This document shows positions 3,083 through 36,246 of a stretch of 36,901 nucleotides of DNA, one piece after another. The position numbers and the translations under genes are program-made. The first letter of the stretch is position 1; each line of letters starts with the position of its first letter. The DNA is from a virus (Duplodnaviria > Caudoviricetes), in the IMG/VR virus record IMGVR_UViG_3300033076_000336, positions 1-36,901 of that record; one strand, given 5' to 3'. The notes below the pieces were generated by a model, which did no database searches, was not told the origin of the DNA, and saw nothing but the letters and a program-made list of their open reading frames with translations.

Positions 3083-3279
3083 TAGAACGCAGAATCAGTG
3101 AACATCGCTGGAATGACTTAGACGAAGATGAACAGCACCAGATCAAACGAATAGTTAGACGATACGCCAGCGATTTTGGTTTTGATTTTGAGTTTCAATA
3201 TTACTGGATGCGATTTACACCAGAAAACTGGTTACTAGCAAACCTAGCAGATACTAAAATAGAAAGGCAAATAACATAA
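3079..3279 (+). CDS. Hypothetical protein
   Basis: 66-aa ORF with SD GAGGA, overlapping neighbours at both ends. Confidence 0.7.
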   Translation: MIERRISEHRWNDLDEDEQHQIKRIVRRYASDFGFDFEFQYYWMRFTPENWLLANLADTKIERQIT

Positions 3280-3587
3280 TGGCAAGACCAGGACCAGAAA
3301 TAATACTAACCAAAGATACAGAAGATGGTGGTAGCCTAGAAGTGCTACACAGTCAAGGAGTTTGGGTATTGGCTTACAAAGGCATACCCTGTGCCCTAAA
3401 AGAACGCTACTATGCGGCAGATGGTGAGCACATCAAATATCCCAGAACAGGCTACAATAACGAAGCACATTGCGTTAGATTGGCTGAAAAGTTAAACAAG
3501 CAATTCAATACCAACAAGTTTACCTGCATGGAAGTGGTAAGATACACGGGTGAAAAGACCCTAATTAGACGCTTGACAAGTGAATAA
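3279..3587 (+). CDS. Hypothetical phage protein (MARPGP...LAEKLNKQF)
   Basis: TAATG coupling. From memory it resembles an uncharacterised family of large uncultured aquatic phages (MSRPKP...LAKKLN..F); not verified by search. Confidence 0.7.
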   Translation: MARPGPEIILTKDTEDGGSLEVLHSQGVWVLAYKGIPCALKERYYAADGEHIKYPRTGYNNEAHCVRLAEKLNKQFNTNKFTCMEVVRYTGEKTLIRRLTSE

Positions 3588-4415: not shown

Positions 4416-6335
4416 ATGCCACAAATTAAGAAAAGTTATGATGAAGTCGCTGTGCCATTTACCAAGATGACTTTCACTCCAGATGTTCCCAGTTCAGCAC
4501 TGGGAGCCAACGAATACAATGCAGGTGAGAATGTAGAAACCGATGTCAGAGGTATTCGTAGTGTTCTTGGAGAAACCGAAATTCTGCAAACTGTTCCTGG
4601 AGAACCTGTGTTTGTCACTGGTGGTTTTAGACAGGGTGGAGACTTTTACTTTATTGTGGCTAACACCTTGGGTGCATGGTATATGAACAAGGGAGATGGT
4701 TGGACCCTAATCACTCCACCAAGTCCTTATATCAACACAGGTTACACTCAAGACCTAGACATTACTGAATCATGGAACGGAACCGTGGTGATCTTTAATG
4801 ATGGTATCAATCCACCGTTCTTCTTACCTGATGAAGCAAACACAAAACTGGTCAACTATAAAAACAATATCACTGCTAACCAGATTACCACTATCGGAGC
4901 ACTGGCTGGTGGACAAAGAACCATCACGGTAGCCACAGCCTATGCTACTGCACCATTTGTTGCTGGTGATAGAATCTCAATTACCATGACTGCTGGTTCA
5001 ACGACATTCACTGGAATTTACCGTGTGGTCAGTTCAACAACCACAACCATTACCTACGAAACAACCAACGCTACAGCATGGGGTGTAACTGAAGCAGGCA
5101 CGGTAACCGCAGCCTACATATGGAATTATAATCCAGACTGGAAATCATTGACAGCAGGATTTGTCAGGATTTATTCTACACCTAATGTGGGTAACATCTT
5201 GGTAGCAGGTAATCTTACTGTAACAGATCAAAATAATGTAGTGAGTAATTATCCAATCACTGTGCAATGGTCACAAGCGTTTGGACTTAACGCCGCACCA
5301 AGAACATGGGAACCAACATTACTGAATGTGGCTAACCAAGTTGAAGTTCCGCTACGAGGCAAAGCACTGGACGCTTTCCCTAGCAATGGTCAGTTATACA
5401 TTTCAAGTTACTGGGACACCGCAGTTCTTACACCTATGAACTATGCAACAACATCAGCACCTATCCTGGGTATTAGACTGTTTAACCAGGGCAGAGGATT
5501 GTTAAACGCAAACTGCTGGGCAAATACTGATGACATGGTGTATGGTATTGATGCCCGTGACATTTGGGTATTCAACGGACAGACATTTCAGGGTATTGGT
5601 AACCAGCGTGTCAAGCACTACTTCTTTGACCAACTTGATCCACAATATGTAGACCGTGTTTATGTAGACTGCAACACAGAAAAGAATCAGGTAGAAATAT
5701 ATTATCCAGATAAGACAGCATACTTGCAGGGCGGACACCCAAACAAGATGTTGAGTTATCGTTATGACCTAGACTGTTGGAATGCTCCCAGAGATGTTAG
5801 CAAGGCTAGTTTTGCCTGCGAAAGCCCTGTGTGGAATCCTGATGATAACACTTACAACCGAGCATCACGAACAGTGGTTTACTGTAAAGGTGCAGAAGGT
5901 TTCAAACTGATCCAGAAAGATTATGGATACTTGTTCGTTGACGGTCAAGCAATCAACAGCACATTCCGCAGAGACAATATCAAACTGTTAAAAGATTACA
6001 GCAGTAAAACCATGGTTCATCGTATTTTACCTGAAGTGGTAAACTTGAACAACAATAATGTGGAGATTGATCCTACACTAAACCCAGAACTTATTGGCAA
6101 CATTGAAGTCACTGTAGAAGGTGCAAACTCAGTGGGTCAACAACCACAACAGGTAACTGGTAAAGTTATATCAACTGATACAGATTATCCATGGGTGCAG
6201 ATTGACCAGAATGCTCATCGTGTTAACAGCATTGAGATCAAGAATCCTATTGATCCTGCATTTGAAACTCCAGGCACAATCTGGATGGTTAATAGTGTGA
6301 CCTGGCAGTTTACAGAAACCGAGGACGACAGATAA
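4416..6335 (+). CDS. Tail nozzle / tail tubular protein (P22 gp10 / T7 gp12-like)
   Basis: 639 aa and beta-rich. N-terminal DVPSSALGANEYNAGENV, internal VQWS, and late EIYYP...YRYDLDCW segments fit podovirus nozzle propellers. Precedes the ejection protein genes. Confidence 0.72.
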   Translation: MPQIKKSYDEVAVPFTKMTFTPDVPSSALGANEYNAGENVETDVRGIRSVLGETEILQTVPGEPVFVTGGFRQGGDFYFIVANTLGAWYMNKGDGWTLITPPSPYINTGYTQDLDITESWNGTVVIFNDGINPPFFLPDEANTKLVNYKNNITANQITTIGALAGGQRTITVATAYATAPFVAGDRISITMTAGSTTFTGIYRVVSSTTTTITYETTNATAWGVTEAGTVTAAYIWNYNPDWKSLTAGFVRIYSTPNVGNILVAGNLTVTDQNNVVSNYPITVQWSQAFGLNAAPRTWEPTLLNVANQVEVPLRGKALDAFPSNGQLYISSYWDTAVLTPMNYATTSAPILGIRLFNQGRGLLNANCWANTDDMVYGIDARDIWVFNGQTFQGIGNQRVKHYFFDQLDPQYVDRVYVDCNTEKNQVEIYYPDKTAYLQGGHPNKMLSYRYDLDCWNAPRDVSKASFACESPVWNPDDNTYNRASRTVVYCKGAEGFKLIQKDYGYLFVDGQAINSTFRRDNIKLLKDYSSKTMVHRILPEVVNLNNNNVEIDPTLNPELIGNIEVTVEGANSVGQQPQQVTGKVISTDTDYPWVQIDQNAHRVNSIEIKNPIDPAFETPGTIWMVNSVTWQFTETEDDR

Positions 6336-14594: not shown

Positions 14595-15026
14595 ATGAAC
14601 ACAGCAGAACTATTAACCCAAGTTTTTTATAACAACTTTACTGCCTACTATCGCAGTCATGTAGCCCATGTTAACACCGTGGGCAGAAACTTCAAAAGCG
14701 ATCACGCATTGTTACAAGGTATCTACGAAGATTTACAAGATCAAATTGATACCATTGCAGAATTGCTACGCACGCTAGACGAATTCATGCCCAGCGAGAT
14801 TCAGTTTGTTTTGAATGAAAGCACAATTAGCACAGCCATATTTGAAGGCACGGCTGATGAATTATTGGCAGGTGTAAGAGATGATTTAGAAACCCTAAAA
14901 GGTTTTTATGAAGATTTAATGGAGGAAGCAGAACTAGATGGACATAAAGAAATAGCCAACTACAGTCAGGACCGTATATTGGCTATTGCTAAACATATTT
15001 GGATGTTAAACGCTACTCTTGACTAA
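14595..15026 (+). CDS. dps: Dps-like (ferritin superfamily) protein
   Basis: HVAHVNTVGRNFKSDHALLQGIYEDLQDQIDTIAELLRTL aligns with the Dps signature HWNxxGxxFxxxHxxxxxxYxxxxxxxDxxAERxxxL. C-terminal KHIWML; 143 aa. Confidence 0.85.
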   Translation: MNTAELLTQVFYNNFTAYYRSHVAHVNTVGRNFKSDHALLQGIYEDLQDQIDTIAELLRTLDEFMPSEIQFVLNESTISTAIFEGTADELLAGVRDDLETLKGFYEDLMEEAELDGHKEIANYSQDRILAIAKHIWMLNATLD

Positions 15027-15842: not shown

Positions 15843-16208
15843 ATGGAAACAGAGAAACCAAAAGCCCCATTAAAGGGCAGACAGAAAAGTGCTAATCACG
15901 GTGGCAAGCGTGAGGGAGCAGGTCGCAAAGATGGCACTAAGAACATGATTACAGTCAAGGGCTTGATGGAAGCCGTTGAAGCAAAAAGTGGCGGAGAAAG
16001 TTACACAGACATTTTAGTGCAGGACTTTCTTGATGCCAGAGCAAGAAAAGATACACAGTTGATGATGAAGTATCACCAACTTATCCTACAAAAAGTCTTG
16101 GTCAATGTCAGCAAGATTGAGATTGCCGAAAGCACTGATGCTGTTCAAGCAAAACAGGCTGCATTTGCAGAAGCATTAGCAAAACTCACAGCCATTGCGA
16201 AAGAATAA
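15843..16208 (+). CDS. terS: Probable terminase small subunit
   Basis: HGGKREGAGRKDGTKN motif typical of TerS N-termini; 121 aa; upstream of TerL. Confidence 0.6.
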   Translation: METEKPKAPLKGRQKSANHGGKREGAGRKDGTKNMITVKGLMEAVEAKSGGESYTDILVQDFLDARARKDTQLMMKYHQLILQKVLVNVSKIEIAESTDAVQAKQAAFAEALAKLTAIAKE

Positions 16209-16211: not shown

Positions 16212-16216
16212 ATACT

Positions 16217-16363
16217 ATGCCGTTAATTAAATCCACTAGTAAAAAAGCATTCCAGAAGAATGTTAAAAAGGAAATCGCCGCAGGCAAGCCTCCAAAACAG
16301 GCTGTGGCTATAGCGTATTCAACTAAGCGTGAAGCCGCAAAAAAGACCAAGGGGAAAAAATAA
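16217..16363 (+). CDS. Small basic protein, 48 aa (MPLIKSTSKKAFQKNVKKEIAAGKPPKQAVAIAYS...), not in the ORF track
   Basis: Read manually. Lys-rich; KQAVAIA pattern recalled from small phage proteins near packaging genes; TAATG-coupled to the next ORF. Confidence 0.8.
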   Translation: MPLIKSTSKKAFQKNVKKEIAAGKPPKQAVAIAYSTKREAAKKTKGKK

Positions 16364-16521
16364 TGGCAAAGCCTGGACTATATGCGAATATACATGCCAA
16401 GCAGGAAAGAATTAAAGCAGGCTCTGGAGAGCGTATGCGTAAGCCTGGCACTAAAGGTGCTCCTACCGCCAAGGCATTTAAACAGGCAGCAAAAACTGCT
16501 AAAAAAGGAAAAACCAAATGA
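16363..16521 (+). CDS. Small basic protein, 52 aa (MAKPGLYANIHAKQERIKAGSGERMRKPG...), not in the ORF track
   Basis: Read manually. GLYANIHAK pattern recalled from aquatic phage small proteins; coupled to neighbours at both ends. Confidence 0.8.
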   Translation: MAKPGLYANIHAKQERIKAGSGERMRKPGTKGAPTAKAFKQAAKTAKKGKTK

Positions 16522-35127: not shown

Positions 35128-35565
35128 ATGGGCAGAATGAAAAAACGAGAAACCTGGCTTACCAAGTCAGGTCAAACTCTAATTGACTATGGCTTACACC
35201 CTGGTGCATTGCTCAGTCAGTATATTACTTGGCAGCGTCCTGCGGGCGGCTATGCTACTATTCCTGATCCAGAACCAGATACTATCAATGTTGCTATCTT
35301 GGCAAAGAAACCTGTGATGTTGGATTTACCGCATGTCTATTTCATGCAACCACAGCAGGATAAGCGATTCTGGATTAGTTTTGGTAGAAGCGATAATCCA
35401 CGCAAGACTGTTGACGGTGTAAAAGATTTTTGGATTGCACACTGGATTAATCCTACGGCAGCAACACCAAGACCTTATATACATCAAGAGTTTCAGGTAA
35501 TAAGTTTGGCAAAAGATATACCTGCTGGCACTAGATGGAAATACATGGAACAATTTGTTGAATAG
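35128..35565 (+). CDS. Hypothetical protein
   Basis: 145-aa ORF closing the fibre operon. Confidence 0.7.
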   Translation: MGRMKKRETWLTKSGQTLIDYGLHPGALLSQYITWQRPAGGYATIPDPEPDTINVAILAKKPVMLDLPHVYFMQPQQDKRFWISFGRSDNPRKTVDGVKDFWIAHWINPTAATPRPYIHQEFQVISLAKDIPAGTRWKYMEQFVE

Positions 35566-35576
35566 CACGCTAAATA

Positions 35577-35654
35577 CTTTTACTAAAGTTAAAGTTTAAA
35601 GACATTTTAGTATCCTTTCCGTTCTTAAACCCCTGTTCGCAGGGGTTTTCTTTT
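35577..35654 (+). ncRNA. Candidate small RNA 1 (~70 nt) with anti-SD/anti-AUG segment
   Basis: TAAATA 35571-35576, no + strand ORF, GACATTTTAGTATCCTTTCC (35601-35620), then a terminator. Confidence 0.55.
35627..35654 (+). terminator. Intrinsic terminator with UUCG loop
   Basis: AAACCCCTG-TTCG-CAGGGGTTT followed by TCTTTT. Confidence 0.85.
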
Positions 35655-35657
35655 GAC

Positions 35658-35691
35658 TAATACTAAAGTATAGGGGTATATTTTAGTATTA
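35658..35691. repeat. 15-bp inverted repeat (operator-like or hairpin)
   Basis: TAATACTAAAGTATA-GGGG-TATATTTTAGTATTA with one G:T mismatch. Confidence 0.75.
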
Positions 35692-35716
35692 TATAGACTT
35701 TAGTGATAAATATTAT

Positions 35717-35892
35717 TGACCGCTGATGGCAGTAATTTCTATCAATAAAGCCATTTTGAGTATCCTCGATTGCTGTCGGCGGTCACTCTTGTAGACATTT
35801 AGTGATGTTCAGCACTAAATATTTTGTCAGTGCAATGCTGACAGTTATCCTTTTTGTAAATCTCACGCCATACGCCCCGCAAGGGGCGTTTT
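35717..35892 (+). ncRNA. Candidate structured RNA(s) 2/3 with anti-SD/anti-AUG segments
   Basis: TAAATA 35707-35712; 17-bp stem 35717-35733/35769-35785 with four G:U pairs; hairpins 35797-35820 and 35825-35843; terminal GNRA hairpin 35872-35889. Confidence 0.65.
35872..35892 (+). terminator. GC-rich hairpin with GCAA tetraloop and short U tract
   Basis: ACGCCCC-GCAA-GGGGCGT-TTT. Confidence 0.65.
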
Positions 35893-35911
35893 GGTTTATG
35901 GTCTATAAGGC

Positions 35912-35917
35912 TAAATA
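35912..35917 (+). promoter_or_regulatory. TAAATA late-type promoter motif
   Basis: GGCTAAATACA after the terminal hairpin, upstream of GTG 35953. Confidence 0.55.
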
Positions 35918-35952: not shown

Positions 35953-36246
35953 GTGAAAGATGACTACAATCCCCGTGATATTTTAAAAGCCTTGAACCAA
36001 CGAGTTCAAGAGCGTTGCCAATATGAATGGCGTGTGCATATTCACATGCCTGTTGAAGATGTTTTGGACATGGTGCAAAACAGATACAATGCTGAATGGC
36101 AGGCAAAAAGAAAAAACCAACCATACACAGTTACTGCTAATTTTTCAACGCTTGATGAAGCAAAAGAATATGCTTACATGGTCAGGTTAACTGGTCGCAG
36201 GTGTAGCATTAATAATAATTGGACAGGAGATGTATATGAAGAATGA
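35953..36246 (+). CDS. Hypothetical protein
   Basis: GTG start with SD AAGGA; 97 aa. Confidence 0.7.
   Translation: MKDDYNPRDILKALNQRVQERCQYEWRVHIHMPVEDVLDMVQNRYNAEWQAKRKNQPYTVTANFSTLDEAKEYAYMVRLTGRRCSINNNWTGDVYEE

Follow-up and report, generated by a model that had tools for sequence, protein, structure and literature searches.

The present study describes a non-coding locus near the end of a freshwater phage genome whose RNAs appear to mirror translation starts. Sequence comparison indicates that the RNA family to which they belong is real, conserved and undescribed, no description having been found in the open literature searched. The explanation that we favour, with moderate confidence, is that these are late antisense RNAs which would keep a larger co-infecting phage, on which the small phage likely depends, from translating its structural genes. 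A T4-like or PA5oct-like helper, candidate target genes and late transcription by gp55 are each proposed from the comparisons given below.

The window, i.e. the whole stretch of 36,901 nucleotides that was analysed, is a podovirus-like record of 36.9 kb from a freshwater phage, and its capsid protein has 560 relatives in IMG/VR. Genes for primase-helicase, terminase, portal, major head, internal virion and tail-fibre proteins were found, and no window gene matched an RNA polymerase, DNA polymerase, sigma factor or integrase. The motif TAAATA occurs 18 times on the + strand versus twice on the - strand, and 9 of the 31 genes carry it within 60 nt upstream. TAAATA is described as the core of T4 and cyanophage late promoters, and T4-type late promoters, TATAAATA / NATAAATA, as being read by gp55 (PMC2984593). 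With those promoters, as that source presents them, the window shares the TAAATA core upstream of structural genes and a strong strand bias (PMC2984593). The motif stands upstream of late genes and a few nucleotides before the predicted RNA 5' ends; the first stem begins 3-5 nt past TAAATA in 31 of 35 units. Unlike T4, the small phages have no detected gp55 homologue. A search with T4-like gp55 (phrog_234) found none in the window or in 60 fetched stretches of relatives, and the same search found homologues in G006, G007, G008, G010 and G023, of which four are T4-like and one is jumbo; both kinds of large phage encode gp55. Since neither a polymerase nor gp55 was detected despite the presence of capsid and primase genes, the phage likely borrows the late transcription of a large phage, helper dependence being argued from this absence.

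Other features were also observed in the window. A repeat-rich and strongly folding intergenic region after the primase (1830-2100), with ACACAC/GTGTGT tracts, is a candidate replication origin. A Dps/ferritin-like gene behind a TAAATA (14595-15026) is present in many relatives and resembles a gene of the jumbo record G022. Two short basic ORFs, at or below the ORF length cut-off, lie at 16215-16520 behind a TAAATA at 16206.

The locus itself (35571-35896) is non-coding and lies between the genes at 35128-35565 and 35953-36246, after a holin-like gene and one further gene. It folds far better than its shuffles (z -6.7; 0 of 100 shuffles as good) and consists of two or three units, each comprising a TAAATA, a hairpin or long closing stem, an unpaired anti-SD (UAUCCU) and a terminator. 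In unit 1 a motif search placed the late-promoter motif TAAATA at 35571-35576 (+). It is followed by a hairpin at 35581-35613 (+; fold z -3.0), whose loop and 3' arm form the putative guide and whose stem is compensatory in G036, then by the unpaired UCCUUUCC and an intrinsic terminator at 35627-35656 (+). Guide 1 (35588-35616, +) is composed of anti-codons 1-6, an anti-spacer and an anti-SD. Unit 2 has its TAAATA at 35707-35712 (+) and a 17-bp closing stem around the guide loop at 35717-35785 (+), which is replaced or covarying in G036, X3 and X10, and it folds to -29.4 kcal/mol on the + strand versus -19.4 on the - strand. Inside the closing stem are a small GCCA-loop hairpin and UAUCCUC; guide 2 (35746-35766, +) consists of a GCCAU loop (anti AUG-GC), an anti-spacer and an anti-SD. 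A third TAAATA at 35816-35821 (+), which lies within a hairpin, is a possible promoter of unit 3. At the 3' end of the locus a GCAA-loop hairpin that covaries in G036 and an unpaired anti-SD tract without contiguous anti-AUG (35825-35853, +) are followed by a terminator common to units 2 and 3 (35872-35896, +), the order being GCAA hairpin, UUAUCCUUU, terminator. A fourth TAAATA is found at 35912. An earlier note on this DNA had described the segments as flanked by TAAATA motifs and stable hairpins, and both were located, together with + strand terminators called at 35627-35648 and 35872-35889. Rfam gave no match at the gathering score and two weak matches below it. Between units 1 and 2 an AT-rich palindrome (35658-35691), which has a 9-mer in common with the unit 1 stem, is possibly a DNA operator. 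A similar palindrome was also seen after RNA units in L034, L049 and L050, and may be an operator or origin element.

Three segments of the locus had earlier been read as antisense guides, and two of these readings stood. Positions 35588-35616 and 35746-35766 are exact reverse complements of SD-spacer-ATG, with spacers of 7 and 8 nt. The third, an M-S-T guide, is composite: its piece at 35790-35800 and the anti-SD at 35844-35853 are parted by two hairpins and the TAAATA at 35816, and 43 nt would have to be skipped along with the two hairpins. Because it is not contiguous, is absent in the closest relative G036 and is altered in the Logan contig X3/11, it was rejected, and the M-S-T piece with its hairpin (35790-35820, +) is unsupported as a guide. 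Homologous loci were compared, as had been proposed, for stems that covary while guides change. G036 has both units, with other stems and with guides reading M-P-L and M-A-T. In X3/11 and X10/3, Logan contigs of diverged relatives, the stem arms change, and no difference over 35740-35768 is among the differences listed; guide 1 of X3/11 carries indels that would break the M-S-L-N-F reading. It should be noted that X10 and X11 probably derive from DNA, and that expression is not something a contig can reveal.

A degenerate pattern of guide 1 gave 114 loci, the largest cluster of which (6 loci) is the DUF4815 virion gene of T4-like phages, where it sits behind the baseplate wedge gene gp8. Guide 1 pairs with the start in L234 over 29 bp (18 + 11 bp around an 8-nt bulge, -34.9 kcal/mol), and the best of 45 DUF4815 family starts (-32.2) outscores every one of 1600 starts sampled from elsewhere, the top matches of guides 1 and 2 having come from patterns built on those guides. 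The homologous unit of G042 (L096:5014) was kept out of the search design. For this unit 1.6% of other starts beat the DUF4815 family median, compared with 36-75% for nine non-homologous units, and it has two anti-SD blocks, like the two AGG blocks of DUF4815 starts. The unit 1 homologues of G036 and G054 show a weak preference for DUF4815, whose median is surpassed by 16% of other starts. In the 80 DUF4815 loci examined, of about 1400, the starts read M-S/P/A-L-N-F and three show the compact SD arrangement mirrored by guide 1; none combines both features, and none of the 80 holds a perfectly contiguous target. The exact guide 1 target had 0 matches in metagenomes, and with up to 3 mismatches there were 0 in 10 MAGs holding jumbo contigs. 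The best target candidate of unit 1 is the T4-like DUF4815 gene after gp8.

Guide 2 has two candidate targets, a siphovirus tail-tube start and a jumbo-phage tail-fibre start. In a scan that covered 28 of 64 parts, its exact 21-nt complement was found at 33 of 119 loci, and 29 of these 33, those where the ORF is full-length, mark the start of a single 164-aa gene that likely encodes the tail tube of a lambda-like siphovirus. With the late tail-fibre start of the jumbo record G023, guide 2 can pair along 19 nt, one of the pairs being G-U (-35.7 when the duplex is extended). The siphovirus match could mean that the RNAs are directed against small competitor phages, such as this siphovirus or others that use TAAATA, whether or not a helper is needed, and the capsid start of the siphovirus-like family described below is the best partner (-30.8) of one relative's guide. 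This is unlikely, in our view: a 21-nt match of guide 2 could arise by chance in some family about 1 time in 7 (a rough estimate), the siphovirus is devoid of TAAATA promoters (0 of 47 genes) and so of a late-promoter link, and a T4-like gene is indicated both by guide 1 and by its homologue in G042.

Guide 2 had also been read as M-A-L-L-I-E, which proved over-extended, since the M-A-L-L-I/M pattern gave 64 loci and no convincing target family; the full 29-nt complement matched only a twin of the window phage. The guide 2 19-mer gave 22 matches in metagenomes, mostly unrelated bacterial starts and one a phage late gene already found, and with up to 3 mismatches there were 2 matches in 30 large-phage records. 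BLASTN against GenBank phages gave chance-length matches only. The host had been named among the possible targets as well. Guides 1 and 2 do match phage starts, but guide 2 with up to 2 mismatches had 0 matches in 401 genomes from the order to which G122 belongs, which may not be the order of the host. When 38 guides were scanned for duplexes with 3929 starts, no phage group was clearly enriched among the top matches, and most guides of relatives had no convincing target among these starts. Two M-A-L guides of relatives rank the jumbo late family M-A-L-x-x-R-R-G-T first and two guides place tail-sheath families among the top three; these are leads only.

The units were also examined as a family. 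Non-coding units started by TAAATA and ended by a terminator were extracted from the fetched relatives (55 non-redundant), and 43 were kept after removing 12 reverse-strand reads of ordinary genes; the counts are not independent because the 43 units are related by descent. The pattern CAT-N4-12-TCC[TC] has 35 matches in 25 of the 43 units versus 7.2±2.6 in shuffles (maximum 15 in 300 shuffles), and [AT]TCCT has 46 matches in 34 units versus 16.8±3.8, while control patterns of wrong order and wrong distance gave 11 matches each versus about 6.5-6.8 expected. Of the trinucleotides that precede the anti-SD, CAT is the most frequent (29 of 60). The anti-SD has an unpaired probability of 0.79 versus 0.43. 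The implied second codons resemble those of real starts (log-odds 0.38 versus -0.40±0.18; 0 of 2000), with M-A in 13, M-S in 6 and M-Q in 4 of 36, and the implied spacers are most often 6-8 nt long, which is also where 742 real starts have their peak. Chance is excluded for the anti-start pattern at the level of the family, though not for a single locus. A common subtype, TAAATA-N2-6-TGTAG, is present in 20 of 50 records (27 matches versus 3 for the control), and 5 of the 12 pairs of its closing helix are compensatory, with 97.9% paired in 4 alignable copies. Covariation was counted on 4 sequences, since 8 divergent units could not be aligned reliably by an automatic method.

Of the 23 near-complete small-phage records, the window included, 14 yielded anti-SD units and the other 9 none. 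The units are conserved in relatives and recur in two unrelated small-phage families. The second is siphovirus-like (G079, G080, G082; L554-L557) and shares the holin, the promoters and a 90-100-aa protein. This sharing of promoters, holin and RNA units with the podovirus family suggests module exchange among phages with a common helper. In the siphovirus-like family more TAAATA-started, terminator-ended structured RNAs occur which lack an anti-SD and have conserved, covarying hairpins. RNAs without an anti-SD were located in L085, L086, L094 and L105 (about 5040-5180) and in L084, L087, L103, L108 and L110.

The same statistics bear on whether the RNAs have dedicated targets at all. They could be broad-range RNAs against ribosome sites, like NfeR1 or RsaE, in which short SD and AUG seeds damp many host or phage mRNAs. 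Several units are anti-SD only (34 of 43 have the anti-SD and 25 also CAU), the arms that face the spacer vary greatly and are for the most part paired (unpaired probability 0.24), and long matches are missing for most guides. We nevertheless hold this to be quite unlikely, on account of the codon-2 bias, the M-Q plus M-A twin modules conserved among units, and the long match, in two blocks, that ties both guide 1 and the G042 unit to a single gene family. In addition, generic seeds would strike the AAGGA starts of the phage itself, the SD type used by its own genes and mirrored by the units. That shared SD type could also speak for autoregulation, in which the RNAs tune the phage's own genes. 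This is very unlikely: as had been stated earlier, no window gene start fits the guides well, the best own duplexes being just -16.6 and -19.7 versus -49.6 and -54.2 kcal/mol for perfect complements, and own starts were better than the median of other relatives in only 11 of 23 guides, i.e. there is no own-genome preference. It is likewise very unlikely that no antisense RNA exists and that terminators, DNA operators and minus-strand micro-ORFs are being read in reverse, for although the unit 1 stem shares its 9-mer with the palindrome and weak sigma-70-like matches occur on the - strand, the minus-strand ORFs from mirrored ATGs have 1-64 codons and no common length (6 of 36 end within 2 codons), promoters and U-tails are oriented for +, G-U pairing is in favour of +, and in 35 of 43 units the fold is better on the + strand. 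The proposal of late antisense RNAs against the starts of another genome is supported by family statistics, covariation, strand asymmetry, lack of self-preference and natural matches to phage starts.

As to the helper, guide 1 points to T4-like phages and gene sharing points to jumbo phages. The latter link arises from a 102-aa protein (3279-3587, +) that is common to both small-phage families and PA5oct/Paride-like jumbo phages; homologues are present in the jumbo records G022 and G023 (G023:31137-31415) and in 0 of 6 T4-like records. When the G023 copy was used as query against 50,697 GenBank phages, it matched only 15 genomes of PA5oct/Paride/Atu_ph07 type. The protein is small alpha/beta, and the half most conserved in jumbo phages diverges in small phages. 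It was considered as a self-made late factor and rejected: its model is confident (pLDDT 88) but not sigma-like, with no fold match above Z 4.4, although it could still be playing that role. The main text of the PA5oct paper gives other promoter motifs, and TAAATA is absent from it (PMC7318152). A protein of the same 102-aa type was also found in Caballeronia temeraria, in a 40-kb integrase-bearing podovirus-like prophage with 19 TAAATA motifs, which precede early and late genes alike; such a promoter pattern fits helper induction. In this prophage (G131:C2, about 402600-442000; L668, L690, L691) short TAAATA-started, terminator-ended units were observed, one of which mirrors an SD-ATG start (414582), and its host is cultured.

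If the favoured explanation of late RNAs against a helper is correct, the gp55 holoenzyme of a T4-like or PA5oct-like helper would transcribe the units at a late stage, from the closing stem onwards, and the stems would protect the RNA ends. The unpaired UCCU and the GCCA/GACA loop would nucleate on SD and AUG, after which the 3' arm of the hairpin would be displaced and zip onto the spacer. Loading of the 30S subunit would be blocked, and the baseplate or tail output of the helper would fall.

In the literature searched, the only satellite-to-helper sRNA found is SviR of the Vibrio cholerae satellite PLE. It is reported as abundant and late, is predicted to occlude the RBS of the ICP1 morphogenesis gene gp120, and lowers the protein (10.1101/2022.04.08.487710). 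Going by that description, the RNAs described here may be likened to SviR, as predicted late sRNAs of a putative phage parasite that would be aimed at the RBS of a helper morphogenesis gene (10.1101/2022.04.08.487710). Guide 1 is complementary to the RBS and start of such a gene of a larger phage, DUF4815, the identity of the helper being only a candidate. No gp55, RNA polymerase or DNA polymerase was detected in the small phage, though its dependence on a helper is not provable from sequence. There are differences as well. As described there, SviR is one RNA with two seeds which also regulates PLE genes, whereas here arrays of promoter-terminator units carry variable long guides. PLE resides in the chromosome as an island and is packaged with parts of the helper, and PLE/PICI satellites are integrated by an integrase and lack full virion genes; the window has its own capsid (major head), portal, terminase and tail-fibre genes and no integrase match.

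The bacterial alpha-r14/NfeR1 'cuckoo' sRNAs are described as carrying an unpaired anti-SD on hairpins with variable stems and as silencing at the translation start (PMC10746234). The display of unpaired anti-SD motifs and the variable stems are shared with the present units (PMC10746234). The cuckoo RNAs, according to that account, have an invariant CCUCCUCCC in the loops of repeated hairpins; this motif is absent from the units, which gave no such Rfam match at E<=1 and have UAUCCU/UUCCUU 3' of a hairpin with an anti-AUG loop, variable guides, and phages as carriers. A parallel in life style may be the satellite of actinophage MindFlayer, which is reported to encode a capsid and to parasitise a larger virus, as virophages do (PMC13359090). 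The window phage would resemble it and the virophages in being a small virus with its own encapsidation genes and, to judge from late promoters without gp55, in parasitism on a larger virus (PMC13359090); sRNA arrays go unmentioned in the part of that source consulted.

A wider view may tentatively be put forward, and we think of it as possible rather than probable. According to this view widespread virophage-like freshwater phages, podoviral as well as siphoviral, would hijack the gp55 late machinery of T4-like and jumbo phages and deploy exchangeable guide-RNA cassettes, protein-free ribosome mimics made of anti-SD and CAU, which are retuned against baseplate and tail genes of the helper. 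A 2026 review counts the parasites of jumbo phages among the questions still open (PMC13282480). The units are short and self-contained and suggest a natural scaffold for programmable translational silencing. If the findings are true, this RNA family would be spread over hundreds of contigs of freshwater phages (560, judged by capsid) and two unrelated virion types, and the guide sequences could be read to name the helpers and their vulnerable genes.
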